Source: a virus. From it: a stretch of 64,000 nucleotides of DNA. The notes under the pieces are model-generated. The model was not told the DNA's origin. It was given only the letters and a program-made list of their open reading frames with translations, and made no database searches. Positions 139 to 47,591 of the stretch are shown piece after piece. The stretch lies in the IMG/VR virus record IMGVR_UViG_3300044712_000991, positions 96,001 to 160,000 of that record. One strand, given 5' to 3'. Numbering within the stretch: the first letter of the stretch is position 1; each line of letters starts with the position of its first letter. A program made the translations under genes and the position numbers.

Positions 139-957
139 TTAGCCTTGCACTAACTTGAGATCACCCACTAGTGTTCCAGAGGAAGTAGTGCCTGTCATCA
201 ATATGAAGAACAGGCATGCCTGGTCGTGTACACGAGGGAACCCAAGTTGCGCCCAATCGCGTTCGTTCGGGTAGTTTGCAAGCGGAGCACCTATGGTAGC
301 GAGCCTTCTCGTGGCCGTTATACCGTAACTTCCAGCCGTGCCTGTAGTGGCGTGGATGATGTTGCCAATGGCGCGTATCTTTTCACCGTTATTGCCAGTG
401 ATGGGGAAGATACGGCTATCTTGGTTAAGTGGAGACGTCCCACCTATCGTAAGGGTCGTACTTCCCGGGGAACCCGATGCGTTTTCATACGATATGGTTG
501 CCGTTGCGCCTGTGGTGCCGATGTCGGTGTAAATTTCAAGCCACCATTCGACATCCGAATAATCTGAGGCACCTCTACGGTTGTTCATGTTGCTTGTACT
601 GCCAGAGACACCCACACCCACCACCTGAGCGGTTGTGGTTGTACCGCTGAGACCCCCCATGTGGGCAAGACGATCGTATACATAGATTGTTGTACCAGAG
701 TTACTTGAATTTAACATGCCTCTTGCAAAGTAACTCATACTTCCTGTTACGGGGTCTGTAAATAACCACGCTCCGGTCAGCGTGTCATCACATATGGCGG
801 CCGTACTTGGTATGGCCCCTTGCCCAGGAGTGCCAGTGGCACGCCACAGGGATGTGAATCCTGCCGTACCCTGAGTAGCGATACTTGCCTTGTTGACAAC
901 CATGGTCTGCCCACTAGCATAAGCGGCAACAATACCATCGAGAGTTGTAATAGCCAT
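139..957 (-). CDS. Hypothetical virion-associated protein (272 aa, MAITTLDG...)
   Basis: Thr/Gly/Ser-rich ORF directly downstream of the tail fibre. Start refined to ATG at 957 behind a GGAG RBS. Confidence 0.55.
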   Translation of the reverse strand: MAITTLDGIVAAYASGQTMVVNKASIATQGTAGFTSLWRATGTPGQGAIPSTAAICDDTLTGAWLFTDPVTGSMSYFARGMLNSSNSGTTIYVYDRLAHMGGLSGTTTTAQVVGVGVSGSTSNMNNRRGASDYSDVEWWLEIYTDIGTTGATATISYENASGSPGSTTLTIGGTSPLNQDSRIFPITGNNGEKIRAIGNIIHATTGTAGSYGITATRRLATIGAPLANYPNERDWAQLGFPRVHDQACLFFILMTGTTSSGTLVGDLKLVQG

Positions 958-970
958 ACTTAGTTCTCCG

Positions 971-3900
971 TTAGAAATACATATCGCAGTGGAAACTCGT
1001 GACAGCCGCACCCACAGAACCCGAGATAGCCAGCCACACAACGGAACCCGAGGGGATGGCGGATGCACTGAACGACCGCACAATTTGAGGATTTGTGGTG
1101 CTCGTAACTATCGTGGTACCCACGAGAGTACCCGATGCCCTCGATGCTCCGTAGTACACCGAGGCCGTTACAGGAGACCCTCCCGTGAGCACGTACGCAA
1201 TTTCCGAGATAAACAACGGGTTCGGCGTACGGAACCACGTGATGTTGTCCCCCGACACGGGGGAGTCCACGGTGATAGACCGTGGAATGTTCATCTGCGA
1301 GCCCTGTACGGTCAGCGACCCCGAGACGTTCACACTCCCACTCGGGACATGCACGTTGCCCATGAACTTCGTCCACCCCGACTCCCAGCGACCAGTCTCG
1401 CGCCCACCACTGTAGATACTCACGGGCTGCGTGCCCACGACATCCGTGCGACCGATGGTCGTGCTGTCAGTACTTGCCGTACCGAGGAGGAGATTCCCAG
1501 CGGGCTGTATTGTCAGGCTACCTACACTACCCACGACATCGATGGTCGTACTCCCATCTGCTGCCACGGTGGTCTTGTAGTAGTTCGACACATCGTACTG
1601 CGTTTGGGAGGATGTGGTGAAGACCGCCGCGTAGTTCCACACGAGTTGCTTGGTGGTCGCCACGTACCCCGCGAGCGACCCAGACTGCATGAACTCCACG
1701 GTGTACCCCTGGGTCGTTCCAATCTGGAAGGCCTTACCGTAGGCCATGGAGGTAACATACGAGGAAGTCGTTTGGACATCCAAGTACTCACCACTGTTGC
1801 GGGCGATGCGGAAAATCCCCGTATTGCCAATAAAAAGCGTGTGGTTCGTAGGAACATCGGCCACACCTGCTGTGAGTGCTGAACTAATATACACCGACCC
1901 CGTGACCTGGAGGTTGCCCGTTATGCGCTGCCCTGCGGAGAAGGCGTTCACCACATCTGTGCCAGCGAATCCTGTATGACCAGATGTAGCATACGCAAGA
2001 TTTGTGAGACCCGCGTGATCCTTGGTAAGGGAGCCCGTGACGTTCGTGAGCAACGCGCCATCACCAATGATTGAGGAACTAAAGCGAACGGAGCCCGTGA
2101 CCACAAGGTCACCCGTTATCTTCGTCCTCCCAGTGACCACCAATGGGTCTGTCGGAGCCGCCGTGTTTCCCACTCCAAGCCAACCACCCACGATGTTCAA
2201 GTCCGAAGTGCCTGGTATGTACAGACCGTAGGCATTCGAGATATCGGCGGTCTTTACGGGATCGATGTACAGTCCATAGGCTGTAGTTATTGTTGCCGGG
2301 GCTCCGAGACCGTTGCTGACCGTGATGTACTCACCTGCCACTTGATTGTGGTTGCCCGTTGCTCCCCAGAAAGCCACCTCCACCCTGTGACCAATCATCT
2401 GAATAGTGGAGCCCGTCATGGCCTTCGTAGACCTATTCTGCACCGTACTGTATGCCCCAATGTACGCCCCCGATAGGGTGGTGGGAGCCCCAGTGACCGT
2501 ATCGGGTATCATCGCACGGTTGTACGTACCGATAACATTGCCCGATGAATCCAAGGCATCCATTAGCACGGCTTCGTTTTCCTGAGCAATCGCCCATCCG
2601 CTTGAAGCAGGCCACGCAAGTGCAAGCGTATTGGCCGTAGCACGCATACTCCACGCGGAGTACGGGGTGTAGTTCGAGAAGTTTCCAATAGACAGACTTC
2701 CACTTACAACCACGCCTCCCGATATGTGCTGTATGGGGATGAAGGTGTTGCTCACGGCGGTGCCAGCGAAACCAGTGTGACCAGAGGTAGCGTACGGCAA
2801 GTTCGACAGACCCGCATGATCCGTTATGACCGCAGGTAGCCCAGCAAACCTAGAGTTGATACCCGAACTCACATACTGTGCGTGGTCGGAGGATTCAAAA
2901 CCAGTGTGACCGGATGAAGCGTAGTCCAATGCTGTAAGACCCGAGTGGACTGTCACTACAGCAGGTAGCGCATTGAACCGAGAGTTGATACCTGAACTGA
3001 CATACTGAGCATCTGCTGAGGACTGAAAGCCTGTGTGCCCTGATGTAGCATACGCTAGGTTCTGAAGTTCATTGTGGTACTCGTGAATCGAGGAGCTCAC
3101 GCCATTGATACGAGTCACGAGGTTCCCACTCACGAACTGCGCGTTCGTTTGGGATTCAAACCCAGTATGCCCTGATGTAGCGTACGATAGGTTCTGGAGT
3201 TCGTTGTGGTACTCGTGTATTGATGCGCTCACGTTGTTGATACGTGTTACGAGGTTACCACTAACGAACTGAGCATTGGTTTGCGATTCAAATCCAGTAT
3301 GCCCCGAAGATGCATAAGTAAGGTTGGACAGTCCGGCATGGTCGGTAATGACCGCTGGCAAGGCATTGAACCGCGAGTTGATACCAGAACTAACATACTG
3401 TGCATTGGCTGAGGATTCGAAACCCGTATGACCTGAGGATGCGTAGTCCAACGCCGAGAGACTAGAGTGGACGGTCACGACCGCAGGTAGTGCATTGAAA
3501 CGAGCATTGATACCCGAACTCACATACTGTGCATCCGCAGAGGACTGGAACCCTGTGTGGCCCGATGTGGCGTACGCTAGGTTCGTGAGACCCGCATGGT
3601 CTTTGGTGAGGGAACCCGTGACGTTGGTCAGCAGGGAGCCATCCCCTGACAGGGTACCAAGAACTGCTAGCGATCCGCTTACAGTGACCGAGCCTGTAAC
3701 GCGTAGTCCACCCACAGTGACCTGACGGTTGGCGAGGTTCCCCGAGTACTCCTCGCTCGATAGGTGGTAGTACTCTGATGGATAGAGACCTCCTTGTAAG
3801 GTCGTAAGTGAGTTGTGATCTATCGCCGCACCGGAGCCTACAGTATTCACCGAGCCGATGGACAGGAACGTCGGTGTGGCAGCCAAACGGCATTGCCCGG

Positions 3901-10568: not shown

Positions 10569-11516
10569 TTACTGGCTGATGGTGCCGGAGTGTGTACCGC
10601 GTGCCACGCCGTTTGCGACCAGCGCCGCCATACCGATCTCTTCGTAGGCCACGTAACCAATCGAGGCCTGCTTCGGAGCATCATCCGGCATGAGGATCAG
10701 TTCGGTACGGACAGGCATCACACCGAAGAAGCGGGGCTCCGCAAGGGAGTACACGCTACCACGCTGGATGAGGCGGCTGACGATGAGGTCAATCCCCCAG
10801 ATCGAGCCGTACAGGCCGGTCTCAAGGACTTCACGCAACGACACCGGATCGAGGTCCTTGGTGGACCACACGCGGATATCCGCGAACGAACGGAAGCGCA
10901 TGAGGAACGCGTACTGAGGCAGATCGTTGTCCATCACACTCGTGCTCAGGTCGTTCAGGAACGTCTTGGACGCACCGGCCGCACCGACCACGTACGGAAC
11001 TGCGGTCGTGTTGCCAGCGGTGGTGGCGTTCAGGAGGGCGATGAACTGAAGGTCTTCCTGCTCCTGCACGGAAATCTTCAACGCCTCTTGGGTACGATCG
11101 AGGATGTTGAAGCGCCGTTGCTGGATTTCGCTCAGACGGATGTTGGCATCCGCGAAGATTTCCCAGGTTGTGGGCTCAACGTACGTGCCGTTGATGTCCA
11201 CCTGGTTCACTGCGCCCTGCTTGGCCACCACGAACGCCGCGATCTGGGACTTGATGTCCTTATCGTAGCGGACGATCTGACCCTGTGCCAGGATGTCGAT
11301 CTCCAGGAACTTCCGAGCCACACCGACGTAGTCGAGTTGCTCGCGGATCGGGACTGCCATCTGCGCACCGACTGCCTGCCGACCTGCTTCGGTCTGGAGG
11401 GCATCGAATACCTGGTCAACGCCCATTGCGGCGTCGTTGTACGTCTGGTACGCATCGTTCATCGGGGCATCGCTCGATGTGGTGGCAAACCCTGCTTGGG
11501 GTTGGTTCTTGCTCAT
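10569..11516 (-). CDS. Major capsid protein (HK97 fold, 315 aa)
   Basis: PIREQLDYVGVARKFL..D.LAQG..VRYDKD motif of large-phage MCPs; order scaffold-decoration-MCP-adaptor; strong GAGAGAGG RBS and a downstream terminator. Confidence 0.85.
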   Translation of the reverse strand: MSKNQPQAGFATTSSDAPMNDAYQTYNDAAMGVDQVFDALQTEAGRQAVGAQMAVPIREQLDYVGVARKFLEIDILAQGQIVRYDKDIKSQIAAFVVAKQGAVNQVDINGTYVEPTTWEIFADANIRLSEIQQRRFNILDRTQEALKISVQEQEDLQFIALLNATTAGNTTAVPYVVGAAGASKTFLNDLSTSVMDNDLPQYAFLMRFRSFADIRVWSTKDLDPVSLREVLETGLYGSIWGIDLIVSRLIQRGSVYSLAEPRFFGVMPVRTELILMPDDAPKQASIGYVAYEEIGMAALVANGVARGTHSGTISQ

Positions 11517-11641
11517 GATCTACCTCTCTCATGTGATGATGGTGAATATGTCTGCGGGAGTACCGCAGTTATGGAACAGCGTGCAGCCATGGGGGTGGAG
11601 TTTACGGTACCCCACCCAGACCGTGTGGATCGCGCCGAGTG

Positions 11642-12115
11642 TTAGATGCGGAACAGCACGCCCAACGTGTAGTCGTTGGCGGCCGAAGGCACCTGGATGA
11701 CCTTGGCGATGACCGAGGCCGACCCCGGGTTGTTCGGTACACCCGATGCCACGGAGGCCGTGACAGTCAGGCGACCGAGGGAGTTCACCCACAGGCTCTG
11801 ACCGACCGAGGCGCTCTCGACATCGAGGGCATACGCACGCGTGGCGCTGGATGTAGCGACTTCCGTGCTGTGATTGATGTACACCTTGGTACCCGAACCG
11901 TAGATACCCGACAGCACAGACCCCGTTGGGGGTGCGCTCAGGTTGGTCGTCGGATCGGTGCCCATGAACAGTGCGTTGTCGCCGGAAGCCAGGGATGCCT
12001 CACCACTTGCATTGAGGGTGAAGAAGTTTCCCGGCTGCCAGCCAGTGGTGATCGTGGTCGCGGTGACCTTGAAGGTGTCCTTGGCGAACGTGCGTTGAAC
12101 CAGTACTTTACTCAT
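11642..12115 (-). CDS. Capsid decoration/stabilising protein (157 aa)
   Basis: Small beta-rich ORF between scaffold and MCP, sharing the GAGAGAGGTA RBS with the MCP gene. Confidence 0.6.
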   Translation of the reverse strand: MSKVLVQRTFAKDTFKVTATTITTGWQPGNFFTLNASGEASLASGDNALFMGTDPTTNLSAPPTGSVLSGIYGSGTKVYINHSTEVATSSATRAYALDVESASVGQSLWVNSLGRLTVTASVASGVPNNPGSASVIAKVIQVPSAANDYTLGVLFRI

Positions 12116-12211
12116 GTGATACCTCTCTCAGAATGAAACAGTGGACGAGCGAACGACTTGTGTCTCAGGGTGACCCCCGCGCAAACGGAGGTCACCCGAC
12201 GAGCGTGCTTC

Positions 12212-14044
12212 TTACTTCTGCCGATACGTGGCCTTCACGCGCCGCGTGGCCTCGGTCTCGGGATTGATACCCTTCTTCCGCAGCCTGTTCGCAATGGTGT
12301 TCAGACCATGCACGAAGGACTTCGGAGCCAGGGAGGACGTGGTGTGCATCTGTGGCACGAGCGAACTCGCCGCGCTGATCTTGCCTTCGGACTTCACTTC
12401 CGGCTTCAGACCATCCGTACTGACCGAACTGTTCTTCGGGTCACGGACGCTCTCGTGGGTGTTCGCGAGAATACCCGTTTCCACCTCTTCGTTCTCGGGG
12501 ATGCGTGCCTCTTTGATGGCCGCTTCCTTCACGATGGGCAGGGTGTTCAGGAGTTCGAGTTGCGCAGCGAACTTCTCGTTCGAGTACGCCACGACCTCAC
12601 GCGCCTTCGTAGCAATGGCCTGCTTCGTGAACGGAATCACGCCACGGGAGGCTGCCACGCGGGCGAAGTCCACAGCCTTGCGGGCGCGAGCTGCGCGTAC
12701 CTGGAGCGATGCTTCGGTCTTGACCGAGCCCGTACCAACGGACTCCCCGGTGTTCCCGCCTTCGAGACCGCCTTCGGTATCATTCGCGGACTCTGTTTCG
12801 GGCTTGTATGCGACGTTCATCTCCGCACCACCCTTGGTCACCGCACCGGCCTTGTCCTGATTGATGCCCATGCCGAGGTCGGTGGCCTGCTTCTGGCTCG
12901 ATGTCAGTTCGCGTGCGAACTCCGAATCACCGAATGCATCGGCGTAGTACGCACGGAGCTTCGACTTGTCCTTCACCTTCGGTTCACGCGCCGTGGTCTG
13001 CAACCCGAGGGAATCCAGTTCGGCGTTCATGAACGATGCGACGGTCTCAATGCCGTTCTTGCGGATGTGCTCCTCCACGTTCCGAGCAAAACTCGGGGAG
13101 GTGAAGATTTCGTAGTTCGCGGCGGTCTTCGGACCGATGGCGGGGCTCAGTTGCTCCCATGTGGCGACCGCATAGCGACCCTTGCCATCCTTGTTGAGCG
13201 AACGCATGACGATCGCGGAGCCGAACACGGGGTTCTTCTTCACGACCTTCGCATTGACATACGCGCCGAACTCGTGGGGGTTACCCTCATCGATCAGCCG
13301 TGGGTCGGACGAGGGGTTGGGCATCCGATCTTCTTTGCCCTTGTTACGCTTGAACTCCTCGTTACCCGCCTCGAACTGCTTGATCTCCTTGCGAGCCGAG
13401 TAGTTGATGTCGCCGTTGATACCCTTGTCACCCGAGAACTCTGCGCCCGTTGGGGGCACGGCAGTCGCCAGGACTTTCCCGAGCTCGTTCCACACGCGGA
13501 TACCCTCGCGGACGTTCTGCACGATCTCGTGGGTGGAACCCGCCTGGGCCGACCCTTGCTTCCGACGCAGGAGGTACGCCCAGTGCCGAATGCTGTCCTT
13601 CGCATCGTCAATGGCCGAGGCCGCTTGCTTGGTCAGAAGACCGAACTCGTTCTGCATCTTCGAGGAGAACCGCGCCGTTTGGCTGGCAGTCTTCTCTTCC
13701 ATCTCTTCTCCCTGCCCGGTGATGGCATCGATGCCATCCACAACGGCCTTGAGGTCTGTGATAGCTTCATTCACGACCTTCTTCGCCTCTTCGGGGGTCT
13801 TGATCTCTTCTTCCTTCTTCTCACCCTTTTCGCCACCGATTTCATCCGGCACGGGCGTGGCCATCTCGGGTCCACCCAGTCCAGCCTCATCTTCGGGAGC
13901 CATGTCACCATCACCCGCACCAACGAACTGCTCGGGCATTGAGTCCGCGATCTTCTTCAGGAGGAAACTCGCCCACTTCCGTGTGGTGTGAAGTTCGGAG
14001 AGCATCGACTTGAGATTCGAGTTGACTTGCGCTGTACTGAGCAT
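12212..14044 (-). CDS. Prohead scaffolding/core protein (610 aa)
   Basis: Charged, coiled-coil/low-complexity protein upstream of the decoration and MCP genes. Start refined to ATG 14044 (GGAG RBS). Confidence 0.55.
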   Translation of the reverse strand: MLSTAQVNSNLKSMLSELHTTRKWASFLLKKIADSMPEQFVGAGDGDMAPEDEAGLGGPEMATPVPDEIGGEKGEKKEEEIKTPEEAKKVVNEAITDLKAVVDGIDAITGQGEEMEEKTASQTARFSSKMQNEFGLLTKQAASAIDDAKDSIRHWAYLLRRKQGSAQAGSTHEIVQNVREGIRVWNELGKVLATAVPPTGAEFSGDKGINGDINYSARKEIKQFEAGNEEFKRNKGKEDRMPNPSSDPRLIDEGNPHEFGAYVNAKVVKKNPVFGSAIVMRSLNKDGKGRYAVATWEQLSPAIGPKTAANYEIFTSPSFARNVEEHIRKNGIETVASFMNAELDSLGLQTTAREPKVKDKSKLRAYYADAFGDSEFARELTSSQKQATDLGMGINQDKAGAVTKGGAEMNVAYKPETESANDTEGGLEGGNTGESVGTGSVKTEASLQVRAARARKAVDFARVAASRGVIPFTKQAIATKAREVVAYSNEKFAAQLELLNTLPIVKEAAIKEARIPENEEVETGILANTHESVRDPKNSSVSTDGLKPEVKSEGKISAASSLVPQMHTTSSLAPKSFVHGLNTIANRLRKKGINPETEATRRVKATYRQK

Positions 14045-42749: not shown

Positions 42750-43228
42750 GTGGTGGCTACGACCATAGTCGGGGCATCCACGAGCACCCCATGGGTATAC
42801 CACGCCCTCCTGTCGCTCTCCTCGACCGCTGGACCATCCTCACGGTGGAGTTCGCCTTGGAAGTACCACACACGGTCACCGTTGGGATACACCTGCGCAG
42901 GACCATCGGCGCGGTGCCGCACTCCGTTGACATACCACGCCTCGTACCCACACACGGCAGGTTCCTGCTCCTTGTTCGGTCGCGGAATTGGCCACGTAAC
43001 GGCCGGTCCATCTTCCCGGTGGCGCTTGCCATGCACGAACCACTCGCACTCGCCGTTCGAGAACTCTCGGGCGGGGCCATCGGTACGGTGGAGAAGATCG
43101 TCCCCATCGTAGTAGAATGTGCCTTCTTCGGTACGTACGCTGTAGCAGTAGTGCTCCATGGTTGTGGAGTACACCTGTTCGCCCGGGACAGCGCGATTTT
43201 CATTCAGGGGTCGGAGGGGGAAGGTCAT
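42746..43228 (-). CDS. HRxDGPA-repeat protein
   Basis: Four (L/R)HRxDGPA repeats with W-(F/Y)-x-x-G spacers. Confidence 0.75.
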   Translation of the reverse strand: MTFPLRPLNENRAVPGEQVYSTTMEHYCYSVRTEEGTFYYDGDDLLHRTDGPAREFSNGECEWFVHGKRHREDGPAVTWPIPRPNKEQEPAVCGYEAWYVNGVRHRADGPAQVYPNGDRVWYFQGELHREDGPAVEESDRRAWYTHGVLVDAPTMVVATT

Positions 43229-43719
43229 CGTGCACCCTCCATGGCGAGCTTGCGAAGCTCTGCGAGCGAGAGGTCGGCCATGTTCACAGGAGCGGGGGTC
43301 TGCGTGAGAGAACTCCGTGAAGTGAGAGCATCCGCCTCGGGGGTCAGGGAGGAGCACGCAGCGAACGGTACGAGAAACTCCCGACCATCACCGAAGTCCA
43401 CCACATACTTCGTCCTGCGTGCCGAGAGGATAGTCCCACGCCGATGTGCGGGGTTCGGGCTCTTTACCGCGACCTGCGTGCCACGCTTGGCCATCCCGAA
43501 CGAGATCATGTCCGTGGACACCTCTTTGGTCTTCACGAGCGACAACGGGAGCGCGAACACGCCCTTCGCCCGATACTCCTGATCATCGAACGACCCCGAG
43601 CCCGAGGAGTACACGAGACCGAACCGCTTGGCGACCTCGGTCAAGGCTTTGTCAACCTCGCTGTGAAGGAACTTCGCTGTCTGTCTGTCCATTTTCGTGA
43701 TTGCTGCGTGCTGTGCCAT
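43225..43719 (-). CDS. Hypothetical protein (164 aa)
   Basis: GAAAGGA RBS behind the promoter. Confidence 0.55.
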   Translation of the reverse strand: MAQHAAITKMDRQTAKFLHSEVDKALTEVAKRFGLVYSSGSGSFDDQEYRAKGVFALPLSLVKTKEVSTDMISFGMAKRGTQVAVKSPNPAHRRGTILSARRTKYVVDFGDGREFLVPFAACSSLTPEADALTSRSSLTQTPAPVNMADLSLAELRKLAMEGAR

Positions 43720-43746
43720 ACTCGGTGTCCTTTCTGTTGGTGCTAT

Positions 43747-43775
43747 AATATACATCGGGGATTTGTGAAAGTCAA
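43747..43775 (-). promoter_or_regulatory. sigma70-type early promoter
   Basis: TTGACT-17 bp-TATATT. Confidence 0.8.
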
Positions 43776-43816: not shown

Positions 43817-44059
43817 TTAGGCTGTGACCTTCTTTTTGTGCTTGATGGCGATGTATCCGCACTTCGGGCGGGAGTAGCGGATGAGCCCCTTGGCCTTCAG
43901 GCGGGCGATGGCGTTGTACGTGGCATGCCGAGACATGAAGGAGTCCCAACCCTCACCCCTGGCGGTGTACGACCGGATGATCTCCAGGATGCGCTTCTCG
44001 TTCTCGACCATCGCTGCCTGAATCTTCTCGTACGCGCTGAGCTTCTTTGACCGTGCCAT
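43817..44059 (-). CDS. Small basic protein, possibly winged-helix (80 aa)
   Basis: Basic ORF behind the promoter; YNAIARLKAKGLIRY resembles a wHTH recognition helix and wing. Confidence 0.5.
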   Translation of the reverse strand: MARSKKLSAYEKIQAAMVENEKRILEIIRSYTARGEGWDSFMSRHATYNAIARLKAKGLIRYSRPKCGYIAIKHKKKVTA

Positions 44060-44087
44060 CTGCGTTAGCCTTTCAATTGGTAGTACA

Positions 44088-44116
44088 AATATACTACACG
44101 CCGAGTCCAAAGTCAA
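44088..44116 (-). promoter_or_regulatory. sigma70-type early promoter
   Basis: TTGACT-17 bp-TATATT. Confidence 0.8.
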
Positions 44117-44151: not shown

Positions 44152-44188
44152 AAAAGCCCCGCCCCGTACAGATTGTACGGGGCGGGGC
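44152..44188 (-). terminator. Rho-independent terminator
   Basis: 15-bp stem GCCCCGCCCCGTACA/TGTACGGGGCGGGGC plus U-run. Confidence 0.85.
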
Positions 44189-44215: not shown

Positions 44216-46159
44216 TCACTTGAGTGCCATCATCTTCACCGTCGTGCGACATCGTGATGGCCCCCCTGTGCCCGTGCCAAGTTCGAGCACTGCGATGTAC
44301 GTGCCTGTCGTAGGGGCAGTCCATCTGGCGGAGTAGGTTCCCAGAGCATGATGTACACCGTTGATCAGTACAGCCTCTCTGCCGAGGATGTCCACGACCT
44401 TCAGGGTCACGGACGCTCCCTCGGGTACCGCGTACTCGATGGTCGTCTCGGGGTTGAACGGATTGGGGTAGTTCCGCAGAGCAAACTGTGTGGGCTTCTG
44501 CGGGTCCTGTTCCACCGCCGTACCGTTCACGATCTGAAATGTCTTGTCCAACCACCCACCTCCATCGGTGAGTGCCGAGGGATAGGCTGTACTCTGCGAG
44601 TAGCAACCGATGGTCATCGAATACGATCCGTTGTGGGTAATGGTCGGGAAGAAGACCACCGTCCGTGTCTGCCCCGCCGTGTAGGGCTGTAGAGTGGAGT
44701 TCAGTACAATATCGTACGGAAGTTGCTGATCTCGATCCAGATAGATACTCACATACGAGGAGGTCGGGCTCACTGTACCAGGGTATGTCCCGTGCGTAAC
44801 ATCCGCCTCAATCCGCAGTTGGGTACCCGCCTGAATGAGGGCGTTCCCTCCTTCGGACAGGAGTTCGCCTGTCTGATTGTTGTACACCCGCTGCGTGGGC
44901 AGGAAGGGCGTGTTGTGGGTGTACGTGAGGTTCGTGGTCAGACCGGCCGCGATGGTCAGCGACCCCTGCCCCCAGTACTGCTCACCCCACGGAGTGATAC
45001 GGGCGTTGTACACCTTGTACGTGTAAGTCCCCGCAGCAAGTCCCTCGAAGATCGCCGTGGACTTTGCGTTCGCCCACTTGTCCTCCACAAGATCGCCGTT
45101 CGGAGCATAGAGTTTCACATGTGCCGATGGTCCAGCGAGCCCCCACGGGTCTTCCGCACGGAGGAGGATTTCAAGTCGCCCCTCGGTCACCATGGGAGCC
45201 ACGGGATACCGTGCGACCCCCTTGTTCCAGTTGGCGATGAACACGAACGTCCCGTTCGATTGGATGGCGTAGATGTCGTACCCCGTGAGCCCCTGATTAA
45301 GGAGTTCCCACGATGTGCCCCCATTGGTCGATCTATAGGCTCCACCGACAGCCCCCTGAGGGGTGTTCGCCATGTTCCCCGCGTAGAGCACCGAACCGTA
45401 TGCACCGAGGCACTGCACGTACGGGTTGACCACCCCCACGTTTGCCGAGCTCCAGTTCACACGGTTCGTGCATTTGAGAATCCCCATCGGGCCGAGATCG
45501 TTGCTGACGCCCGCGAAGACCGCCGAGCCCGTGGCGAGCATGTCCCACACATACTTCTTGCCGTTGTTTTCCCACAGCATCCAGTGCTGTCCATAGTCGC
45601 GGGAGATGAAGATGCCCCCGTTGTCTCCTCCGAACGTACCGACGTACATGTCCGTCCCCTGCACAACGAGGGAGAAGGCGTTGGTGTTCATCAGTCGCCC
45701 ATTCGAGCCATCGGAGAACAGAGCACCGTTAGAGAACGACCACGTCGCTCCGTTGTTGGTGGACTTCTGCACCCCTCCCGATCCTGCGACAAACAATGAA
45801 CCATTGATCTTGGTAATTGCCCTGACCTGTGTATTGAGCATGGATGTCCACGAAGTCCCGTTGTCCGATGAACGCTTCACGCCATCAGTGTGCATCGCGT
45901 ACACCACACCGTCGATGACCTCCAGACCATGACAGAACTCGTTGCCGGGGGTCTTCTGCCACGCGCCACCCTGGTTTGATGACCGGAAGACCCCACTGTT
46001 GGTCGCCGCGAACACGTAGTCCCCGTTGAAGCCGATGTCGTATGTGTAGGCTGAGGTCAGCCCCGATGTGACGTACTCCCACTGCTGTGCTCTCCCCAGG
46101 GACACTCCGCAGAACAGCAGGAGGATCGAGAGGATGATGCTCAGGTTACGCTTCTTCAT
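44216..46159 (-). CDS. Secreted BNR/Asp-box beta-propeller protein with T9SS type-A C-terminal sorting domain (647 aa)
   Basis: Signal peptide MKKRNLSIILSILLLFCGVSLGRA-Q; repeated S.N.G..W Asp-boxes; C-terminal NYPNPFNPETTIEY...LKVVDILGRE...KMMALK. Confidence 0.85.
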   Translation of the reverse strand: MKKRNLSIILSILLLFCGVSLGRAQQWEYVTSGLTSAYTYDIGFNGDYVFAATNSGVFRSSNQGGAWQKTPGNEFCHGLEVIDGVVYAMHTDGVKRSSDNGTSWTSMLNTQVRAITKINGSLFVAGSGGVQKSTNNGATWSFSNGALFSDGSNGRLMNTNAFSLVVQGTDMYVGTFGGDNGGIFISRDYGQHWMLWENNGKKYVWDMLATGSAVFAGVSNDLGPMGILKCTNRVNWSSANVGVVNPYVQCLGAYGSVLYAGNMANTPQGAVGGAYRSTNGGTSWELLNQGLTGYDIYAIQSNGTFVFIANWNKGVARYPVAPMVTEGRLEILLRAEDPWGLAGPSAHVKLYAPNGDLVEDKWANAKSTAIFEGLAAGTYTYKVYNARITPWGEQYWGQGSLTIAAGLTTNLTYTHNTPFLPTQRVYNNQTGELLSEGGNALIQAGTQLRIEADVTHGTYPGTVSPTSSYVSIYLDRDQQLPYDIVLNSTLQPYTAGQTRTVVFFPTITHNGSYSMTIGCYSQSTAYPSALTDGGGWLDKTFQIVNGTAVEQDPQKPTQFALRNYPNPFNPETTIEYAVPEGASVTLKVVDILGREAVLINGVHHALGTYSARWTAPTTGTYIAVLELGTGTGGPSRCRTTVKMMALK

Positions 46160-46205
46160 TGATGTATCTCCTTGTGGATGATGGTACCCGCTTGAACTTG
46201 GTTGC

Positions 46206-46234
46206 AATATACATACAGAAAATCGAAAAGTCAA
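46206..46234 (-). promoter_or_regulatory. sigma70-type early promoter of the T9SS cargo gene
   Basis: TTGACT-17 bp-TATATT. Confidence 0.8.
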
Positions 46235-46241
46235 ATCGTGC

Positions 46242-47591
46242 TCACTGCGGAAAGCCACACCTATCGTGGAATTCCTGGACTCGCTCATCGAAGATGATGT
46301 CCTCGAACACCAACGGGCGGCTCAGTCGTAGACCGGCCATGGTGGTGCACCTGCTGAGAGCCACATAGACCTGTCCGTGAGCGAACGCACCCTTACCGAA
46401 GTCCACGATCACCCTCTCGAAGGTCTTGCCCTGCGCCTTATGGATGGTCACCGCCCACCCGAGTTTGATGGGCAACTGGGTGAAACTCCCCACGGAGGTC
46501 GCCCTCAGATGTCGGCCATCCATGGTGTACGCGTACTTGTCCCACTTCATGCTCTCCACCTGCACAACAGAGCCCTCGATGTCCACCCCAACCCAACTCT
46601 GTCCCAACTCCACGACCGTACCGATACTGCCGTTCACGAACGCCCCTCCGGGGTCGTTGCGTACGAGCATCACCTGCGCACCCACGCGAAGCTTCAGGAA
46701 CTCATCCGTAGGATGCTGCTTGTTCTCGTAGAACTGCCCACTGATGGTCGCTCTGTACAGGCGCTCGGGCATCGGGAGTCTGCGCAGTTGCTGGGTGTTG
46801 ATGGACTCCGCGATGCTGTTTGTGGCGGTGAGCATGATGGGCTCTGCCGCGACCCCTGGAGGAAACTGCGCATCATTCCAGTCCACTTTGAGACTGCACC
46901 GCCGATTCAGCAGATCAATGTCCTCCTGCTCAACCTGCCGATTGCGGATACGGTTCAGAATCTCCAGGAACTCGGGGTCGTTCTGTTGCCGGAAGGCCGT
47001 GGTGAGCATCGCGGCCTGAAACGGGGTGTCCCGCACACAGTTCGCGTCGAAGAAGAACGGGGAGGCATAACGCTCTTCCAAGAACTTCTGTGCCACCCCC
47101 TTCACCACGGGCGGAAGTTGGCAGAGGTCTCCGAAGACAATGAGTTGCACCCCACCGAACTGCTTGTCGGGCTCATCGCGATGCATGCGCAGACTCTTGT
47201 CTATGCAGTCCAGGACATCCGCCCTGACCATACTGATCTCATCGATGATGAGCGTGTCGAGTTCCTCCATCTTCTCCCGTAGAGAGTAGTGGTACTGCAC
47301 ATCCGCCTCGGGATCGAGCACCTCCTGCACGGGGAATCTGAAGAAGGAGTGGATGGTCGCGCCCCCGACGTTCAGCGCCGCGACCCCCGTGGGAGCCACG
47401 ACAGCCGTGACCCGCGTACTCAGCACTTCCTCCAACAAGTGACGGAGAAGCGTGGACTTGCCCGTACCCGCGTTGCCCGTGACAAACACATTCGGGAAGT
47501 CCTCCCTCTCCACGAGCTGGATGACCTCCTGGTACTCGGGGGTGATGATGATGTTCGTGGGTTTCTCCATTTCCATTTCAACGGTGGACAT
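46242..47591 (-). CDS. PIF1/RecD-like SF1B DNA helicase
   Basis: GNAGTGKS, DEISM, GDLCQLPP, AVTIHKAQG and YVALSR motifs. Confidence 0.92.
   Translation of the reverse strand: MSTVEMEMEKPTNIIITPEYQEVIQLVEREDFPNVFVTGNAGTGKSTLLRHLLEEVLSTRVTAVVAPTGVAALNVGGATIHSFFRFPVQEVLDPEADVQYHYSLREKMEELDTLIIDEISMVRADVLDCIDKSLRMHRDEPDKQFGGVQLIVFGDLCQLPPVVKGVAQKFLEERYASPFFFDANCVRDTPFQAAMLTTAFRQQNDPEFLEILNRIRNRQVEQEDIDLLNRRCSLKVDWNDAQFPPGVAAEPIMLTATNSIAESINTQQLRRLPMPERLYRATISGQFYENKQHPTDEFLKLRVGAQVMLVRNDPGGAFVNGSIGTVVELGQSWVGVDIEGSVVQVESMKWDKYAYTMDGRHLRATSVGSFTQLPIKLGWAVTIHKAQGKTFERVIVDFGKGAFAHGQVYVALSRCTTMAGLRLSRPLVFEDIIFDERVQEFHDRCGFPQ

Follow-up and report, generated by a model that had tools for sequence, protein, structure and literature searches.

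Can a phage export a protein through a secretion machinery of its host, and what would such a protein do on the outside of an infected cell? This question is raised by a gene in a stretch of 64,000 nucleotides (positions 96,001 to 160,000, in the following the window) of the IMG/VR virus record IMGVR_UViG_3300044712_000991, where an earlier annotation from sequence (the original prediction) had proposed a phage-encoded cargo of a type IX secretion system (T9SS) at 44216-46234. The gene codes for a protein of 647 amino acids, here labelled P0001, and the phage genome carrying it is labelled G000. With a probability of roughly 0.65 it is read here as a moron-like accessory gene, the product of which is predicted to be exported via the host T9SS and to act as a binding protein on the infected cell, coating or masking its surface. 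The locus offers a clean and complete case in which a phage seems to make use of the T9SS, a system confined to the Fibrobacterota-Chlorobiota-Bacteroidota (FCB) group, to place a protein on or outside the cell it infects.

Sorting signals and domain architecture of the predicted cargo

P0001 pairs an N-terminal signal peptide of the Sec pathway with a T9SS type A sorting domain, the C-terminal domain (CTD), which lies at the extreme C-terminus (residues 559-647 of 647, window positions 44219-44485, minus strand; NYPNPFNPETTIEY ... VVDILGRE ... GTY ... KMMALK). The NCBIfam model TIGR04183 matched residues 564-630 with 34.4 bits at a curated cut-off of 23, and in a six-frame scan of the 194,278-bp genome with the same model the CTD of P0001 was the only one found, again over the cut-off (26.8 bits). 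Seven beta-strands were predicted for the domain (AlphaFold2, residues 559-645), and the homologues P0002 and P0003 are annotated with the Pfam family PF18962. G593 is invariant in 14 of 14 sequences; within the family, the same is true of M643, A645 and K647. For secretion in Porphyromonas gingivalis, a glycine of L-beta3-beta4 and a C-terminal Lys motif matter (PMC11285876), to which, judged from sequence, G593 and the C-terminal Lys of P0001 correspond.

The signal peptide (residues 1-24, 46088-46159, minus strand; MKKRNLSIILSILLLFCGVSLGRA|QQ), assessed by eye, shows a basic n-region (KKR), a hydrophobic core of 11 residues and a predicted G-R-A|Q cleavage site (GRA|QQ). Its sequence varies across the family with the exception of the Gln behind the cut, Q25, which is invariant in all six aligned members. 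A lipoprotein reading of the stretch 'LLLFCG' was rejected, as Phe at position -1 misfits a lipobox and the Cys is missing in the homologues.

Between the two signals lies a passenger of three domains. An AlphaFold2 model built from 14 sequences (mean predicted local distance difference test, pLDDT, 79.5) displays a signal helix (residues 2-20), followed by a seven-bladed BNR/Asp-box beta-propeller (residues 25-320, modelled about 26-320, pLDDT mostly 80-93; 45200-46087, minus strand), which was also recognised by Foldseek and by its Asp-boxes (S-x-D/N-x-G-x-x-W), five of them clean at residues 60, 97, 133, 186 and 277 and one degenerate at residue 230; the Pfam family PF02012 (BNR) scored 21.3 bits at a cut-off of 27. 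The propeller is the best conserved region of the family (66-69% identity), the CTD the second best (49-55%). It is followed by a beta-sandwich of CnaB/transthyretin-like fold (residues 321-417, modelled about 325-415; 44909-45199, minus strand), for which VIA-align gave generic matches to CnaB2, pilin and carboxypeptidase-regulatory-type domains (Z about 10-10.7), and by a second beta-sandwich (residues 418-546, modelled about 419-545; 44522-44908, minus strand). The top fold matches of the latter were the O-antigen (glycan)-binding domains of the transporter Wzt (Z 11.8, 11.6 and 11.2; root-mean-square deviation about 3 Å over 120-137 aligned residues), only about 1 Z over unrelated sandwiches, so that the likeness to a glycan-binding domain is taken as a lead only. 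A disordered linker (residues 547-556) connects to the seven-stranded C-terminal sandwich (residues 559-645). The parts named in the original prediction, i.e., a Sec signal peptide ending in A-Q, Asp-box propeller repeats, further beta domains and a type A sorting domain, were all recovered.

These features bear on the alternative that P0001 is a component of the virion or of adhesion, in which the CTD-like sandwich, as an Ig-like domain, would serve just for decoration or binding, without involvement of the T9SS. Ig-like domains and beta-propellers are indeed common on phage particles, and matches in BFVD include virion structural and tail-fibre-type proteins. However, a virion protein assembled in the cytoplasm would not be expected to have a cleavable Sec signal peptide followed by a conserved Gln (+1), the CTD is by its score a genuine type A sorting domain that keeps the important Gly and the C-terminal Lys, and the gene is located outside the structural module, among sigma70-type promoters and in a transcription unit of its own. 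A virion role is hence considered improbable.

The weakest step of the argument concerns what the exported passenger would do. In Foldseek searches the top ranks went to two hybrid two-component systems of Bacteroides, BT4663 and BT4673, with their periplasmic sensor domains of propeller plus Ig, followed by PorZ of P. gingivalis and GH74 xyloglucanases, all with generic template modelling (TM) scores of about 0.3-0.36, and none of the catalytic families in Pfam and NCBIfam matched P0001 at threshold. Because sensor and binding domains lead the fold ranking, Wzt provides a lead and no catalytic family is present at threshold, we infer a binding or coating role rather than an enzymatic one. PorZ (PDB 5M11; rank 16, E 1.7e-11) combines a beta-propeller with a T9SS CTD as P0001 does, but it has two propellers, retains its CTD as a component of the T9SS attachment complex and is unrelated in sequence, and its TM of about 0.3 is generic.

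An enzymatic role would involve the same export by Sec and T9SS, with the passenger as a released enzyme or nutrient-scavenging protein, e.g., the product of a glycan-degrading or glycan-binding auxiliary gene, which would boost host metabolism or clear capsule or receptor glycans and form no surface shield. Propellers with BNR/Asp-boxes typically occur in sialidases and GH74-type enzymes, the Foldseek matches to GH74 xyloglucanases and a weak NCBIfam match to NF045728 ('F510_1955 family glycosylhydrolase', 51.8 bits) point in this direction, and the T9SS cargoes of the uncultured Cryophage include an endoglucanase and a GH39 protein (PMC7468147). Yet the cut-off of NF045728 is 175 bits and its match covers repeat motifs only, GH74 enzymes need two propellers whereas P0001 has one, and the best-ranked folds are the sensor and binding propellers and PorZ, with no catalytic family over threshold. 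A released enzyme or scavenging protein therefore appears unlikely, and a binding protein that shields the surface is the preferred reading of the passenger.

A single-gene transcription unit in a complete phage genome

The long open reading frame (ORF) on the minus strand extends over 44216-46288, and its true start is the ATG at 46159, since a Shine-Dalgarno (SD) site AAGGAGA, read directly in the sequence, is placed 7 nt ahead of it (46167-46173, minus strand), a canonical signal peptide follows and five of five close homologues share this start. The coding sequence including the stop codon thus occupies 44216-46159 (minus strand), as supported by the ORF, the profile matches and five full-length homologues, and the longer ORF has 43 additional codons, which overlap both the promoter and the last part of the Dda/PIF1-like helicase gene upstream, whose stop codon ends at 46242. 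The sigma70-type promoter (TTGACT-17 nt-TATATT, 46206-46234, minus strand) begins 8 nt past that stop. At the other end, an intrinsic terminator with a GC-rich stem of 15 bp, a loop of 3 nt and TTTTC (44156-44188, minus strand) follows 28 nt past the stop codon; its hairpin was calculated at -34.5 kcal/mol (z = -6.13), and none of 200 shuffled sequences was equally stable. The next promoter of the same type, at 44116, is situated beyond this terminator. A dedicated promoter and a strong terminator, as originally predicted, were accordingly found and the gene itself stood, but the proposed range comprises promoter plus gene, 46234 being the first base of the promoter and 46159 the limit of the coding sequence.

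The promoter belongs to a type, TTGAC[TA]-N16-18-TATA[TA]T, of which 22 exact copies occur in the genome, all on the minus strand and all just ahead of start codons, compared to 0.3 expected from mononucleotide shuffles. Most copies share the extended form ACTTGACTTTC...TGTTGTATATTG, and they are located in the window between 18440 and 63606 and at genome positions 15376, 36331, 161061 and 172935. One copy is kept in position in a related phage (G001, see below), downstream of terL. The TTTG/TAnnTTTG pattern of Bacteroidia-type promoters was not enriched in the genome (two found, 0.95 expected). SD cores precede 45% of the first starts of long ORFs in G000, compared to 17% of random positions, and 29-43% compared to 5-6% in relatives of low GC content. 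As a near-consensus sigma70 promoter requires no phage factor, we infer that the cargo gene is transcribed early.

Downstream of the terminator, the genes at 43817-44116 and 43225-43755 (both minus strand), which matched no Pfam or PHROG family, possess promoter copies of their own (44116-44088 and 43775-43747), and a second terminator-like hairpin was noticed at 43801-43782. The region around the cargo gene is in effect a string of single-gene units.

The genome as a whole is a single IMG/VR record of 194,278 bp with a completeness of 100% (CheckV), and it closes, as its last 134 bases repeat the first 134 (133 of 134 identical). The DNA, that of a soil phage, derives from a rhizosphere metagenome, and one run of a second rhizosphere study contains identical short pieces of it. 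In both rhizosphere runs dozens of unrelated contigs match 40-65-nt stretches of window positions 44408-44474, which encode the CTD motif NYPNPFNP, with 80-90% identity; genes with such a motif are therefore common in these communities. Among the genes of the window are those for a major head protein (phrog_2522, 7.5e-52), a tail spike, the Dda/PIF1-like helicase, a C5 DNA methylase and eight tRNAs. Neither a tyrosine integrase nor a serine recombinase or resolvase was detected in the 194,278 bp, and the phage is for this reason probably virulent.

Among the circumstances that could undermine it, the original prediction had named a contig chimeric with host DNA at this site. The GC content of the cargo gene is 0.587 and that at third codon positions (GC3) 0.74, compared to a GC3 of 0.79 in the helicase and 0.78 in the capsid gene, so that the gene does not deviate from its phage neighbours in base composition. 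Matching GC3, a promoter of the phage type and closure of the genome rule out an assembly chimera.

Morons in the sense of Hendrix and Juhala are single genes of lambdoid phages with their own promoter and terminator; classical morons are prophage-borne, expressed from the repressed prophage and often of deviant base composition. The P0001 gene resembles them as a one-gene unit from promoter to terminator between unrelated phage genes, which varies in presence and position among relatives, but it differs in its matching composition and in that no integrase was found in the genome. It is moron-like, not a classical moron.

Homologues, recurrence in other phages and the probable host

Five full-length homologues of P0001 (P0002-P0006) were found in metagenomes, with 52-77% identity and the same architecture. 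Scans of IMG/VR contigs with the single proteins returned no relative of P0001 and no match for the neighbouring helicase, and a tblastn search of 50,697 GenBank phages gave a BNR protein of the Synechococcus phage S-CBWM1 as sole match. Distant matches (at most 33% identity) were cellular BNR, Sortilin-Vps10 and Por_Secre_tail proteins, the few named ones from Kapabacteria, Ignavibacteria, Bacteroidota and Cyclobacteriaceae. Such cellular proteins, including Ycf48-like ones of Ignavibacteriota, Kapabacteria and Bacteroidota, share the architecture of P0001 with optional sandwiches and the NYPNPFNP motif in the CTD; they differ in their low full-length identity, and the phage copy is under a phage promoter. 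In 185,579 species-representative genomes no homologue above about 33% identity was present; the matches there were confined to distantly related BNR propellers (23-31%) of Acidobacteriota, Eremiobacteria and other groups, so that the family P0001-P0006 has no close member among them.

To retrace the gene type among related phages, homologues of the capsid protein were aligned, which yielded 43 IMG/VR loci, and 23 of those records were scanned with TIGR04183. The closest complete relative, G001 (171,836 bp, direct terminal repeats, GC content 37% compared to 55% in G000) has a capsid protein 89% identical to that of G000 and is syntenic with it at 30-67% protein identity. It encodes a different cargo (L058:5777-6919, also L055:1492-2634, minus strand) of 380 amino acids, in which a signal peptide (...TVQA|QQW) precedes a propeller of Ycf48-like type and a CTD of 44.3 bits. 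Its resemblance to P0001 is limited to the CTD (33% identity) and the first blades (30% identity). The gene is inserted between homologues of G000 11345-11782 and 12166-12948, just past a spanin-like gene in an operon downstream of terL, where G000 shows nothing but a gap of 384 bp. A third complete genome, G007 (181,733 bp), encodes a cargo of 333 amino acids (L056:1486-2487, minus strand) with a signal peptide, a passenger of no recognised family and a CTD of 37.5 bits; the CTDs of the G001 and G007 cargoes pass the threshold of PF18962 as well. G006 (90% complete) had no T9SS CTD gene in the TIGR04183 scan, and the helicase adjoining the P0001 gene was not found in G001, G006 and G007. A 'provirus' match in G012 (19.2 bits, under the cut-off) lies among tail-fibre-like ORFs and was set aside. 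The presence of a different cargo at a different locus in G001 indicates that cargo genes were gained or moved independently within the clade.

Recurrence was not limited to this clade. A DNA pattern for NYPNPFNP was found in 61 stretches among 2.9 million IMG/VR contigs, and three large phages with different capsids, G024 (207 kb, 91% complete; cargo gene L124:1486-2289, minus strand), G025 (210 kb, 100% complete) and G026 (161 kb), carry genes with signal peptide and CTD that pass both models. G007 and G024 stem from the same sample (metagenome 3300029288) and have unrelated capsids but related small cargoes (36% identity overall, about 75% in the CTD), which suggests a shared host or an exchange of genes between phages. 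By these sequence criteria the T9SS cargo is a recurring accessory gene type of phages, and its appearance in large phages, both related and unrelated, with differing cargoes and at differing positions suggests that the trait is selected for and no accident.

The same data bear on the assumption that the P0001 gene is a recently captured host gene carried as a neutral passenger, or else an artefact of assembly with host DNA. Its distant homologues are cellular T9SS proteins and it lies outside the conserved core of the clade, with different loci in relatives, as would be expected of such a capture. Nevertheless, the gene has fully taken on the GC and GC3 of the phage, promoter and terminator are of phage type, phage genes lie on both sides in a closed genome, no homologue above about 33% identity is present in the 185,579 species-representative genomes, the reading frame is unbroken and retains both sorting signals, and three complete members of the clade carry different cargoes that recur independently. 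Neutral capture or chimerism is thus regarded as very improbable, and a retained accessory gene is preferred.

For an uncultured clade of soil phages the cargo gene is a rare clue to the host. In a search with the CTD only, the nearest named domains belonged to Melioribacteraceae, Ignavibacteriae and Cloacimonadota. Look-alikes of P0001 in the ESM-Atlas were mostly clusters of Ignavibacteriota or Bacteroidota (0.84-0.86, leads only), and those of the G001 cargo were dominated by Ignavibacteriota (0.98 by features, structure TM about 0.7), so that the Ignavibacteria-related lineage suggested from the sorting domain alone is upheld. The invariant Gln behind the signal peptide fits the Q-rule, which applies to 71% of signal peptidase I substrates in Bacteroidetes and 77% in Ignavibacterium album, whereas it is below 9% in most Chlorobi (PMC5837995), and phage proteins following the Q-rule have previously been interpreted as adapted to their host (PMC10367356). 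Bacteroidia have ribosomes that make no use of SD sequences (PMC10798248). As the phage uses sigma70-type promoters and SD sites, its host is probably not a member of the Bacteroidia. Taken together, a T9SS-bearing bacterium outside the Bacteroidia, most likely Ignavibacteriota-like, is somewhat favoured as host. We know of no cultured phage-host system in the Ignavibacteriota.

CTDs are not interchangeable between species (PMC11285876), and the CTD of a phage must consequently match the T9SS of its host, which explains the differences between the CTDs of these phages.

Proposed role and relation to known systems

In the proposed course of events, host RNA polymerase would transcribe the cargo gene early or in the middle of infection, alongside replication genes with the same promoter type. 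The Sec system would carry the protein into the periplasm, where signal peptidase I would expose Gln25, and the host T9SS would recognise the CTD and take P0001 through the outer membrane. On the far side the CTD would be removed, and the propeller with its two sandwich domains would be anchored on the surface or released. The passenger, presumably a binding protein, possibly for glycans, and not an enzyme, would then coat or mask the infected cell, which is the weakest of these steps, and such a coat could block superinfection and/or keep progeny phages off infected cells and debris.

Superinfection exclusion or receptor masking is plausible by analogy. In Flavobacterium, phages are known to use T9SS cargoes and gliding adhesins as receptors, which makes it plausible that a T9SS cargo produced by a phage masks a receptor. 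Llp of T5 and Cor of lambdoid phages, accessory proteins with signal peptides that are exported to the host envelope early and block adsorption, may serve as working analogues, although they are small lipoproteins of the Lol pathway without homology to P0001 and are not T9SS cargo.

Several points weigh against this explanation. The CTD of P0001 scored 24.2 bits with Pfam PF18962, just short of the cut-off of 27, and P0001 and P0002 carry an insertion of seven to eight residues before the last CTD strand, with low pLDDT at residues 630-635. The promoter type is the single ground for the early timing. Fold matches of the passenger are generic, a propeller and sandwiches, which makes its role a guess, and propellers are also present in virion proteins of other phages (BFVD). 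Finally, the flanks of the short contigs L003 and L004 (40-44% GC), on which the homologues P0005 and P0004 are encoded, show no phage marker, no Pfam or PHROG match and no similarity to G000; their upstream regions contain a sigma70-like promoter and SD sites and lack the extended form of the phage motif.

Phage-encoded T9SS cargo has already been described at the level of sequence (de Jonge et al., 2019, PMC6949934; Bellas et al., 2020, PMC7468147), and no experimental work on it was found in the literature. Bellas et al. (2020, PMC7468147) reported three variable cargo genes in Cryophage, called 'a unique occurrence', and proposed hijacking of the host T9SS with a possible role in superinfection or competition. 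Cryophage is comparable to G000 as an uncultured phage with type A sorting domains on variable accessory genes, and in both the cargo is known from sequence alone. It carries three cargoes in one phage, namely an endoglucanase, a GH39 protein and a protein with PA14 (PMC7468147), whereas G000, a 194-kb rhizosphere phage, carries one BNR propeller with two sandwiches in a defined unit from promoter to terminator, and cargo genes recur across its capsid-defined clade and in unrelated large phages. The crAss-like 'cluster 2' contigs, with hosts of Bacteroidetes type, likewise contain ORFs with T9SS sorting domains, but these gut phages of Bacteroidia have them adjoining the head module and linked to BACON repeats (de Jonge et al., 2019, PMC6949934), while in G000 the gene is located in a non-structural region, its passenger is a propeller and the host is probably not a member of the Bacteroidia. 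Added here are the full anatomy of the transcription unit, the differing cargoes and loci within a clade of 170-195 kb and in unrelated phages, and a probable Ignavibacteriota-like host.

A T9SS cargo cassette can be defined as a signal peptide together with a passenger that varies and a CTD matched to the host, found at different loci. That large phages (about 160-210 kb) of Ignavibacteriota-like or other non-Bacteroidia FCB hosts routinely carry interchangeable cassettes of this kind for an early re-coating of the host is put forward tentatively, as a possibility we would not yet call probable. If true, hijacking of the T9SS would be a general and so far unstudied strategy of phages, and CTD sequences, being species-specific, could be used as markers for host assignment.

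Two minor observations concern the neighbourhood of the homologues. On L003, 0.7 kb upstream of the P0005 gene and separated from it by an unrelated ORF of 122 amino acids, a gene at 325-939 (plus strand) encodes a protein of 204 amino acids that has a signal peptide with its cut ahead of Gln (SVYA|QN), no family match and a C-terminus resembling a beta-sandwich tail, and that might be a second secreted cargo. On L004, a small and very hydrophobic ORF of about 55 amino acids (2355-2520, plus strand) directly precedes the P0004 gene, and its stop codon falls within the AAGGAG ribosome-binding site of that gene.

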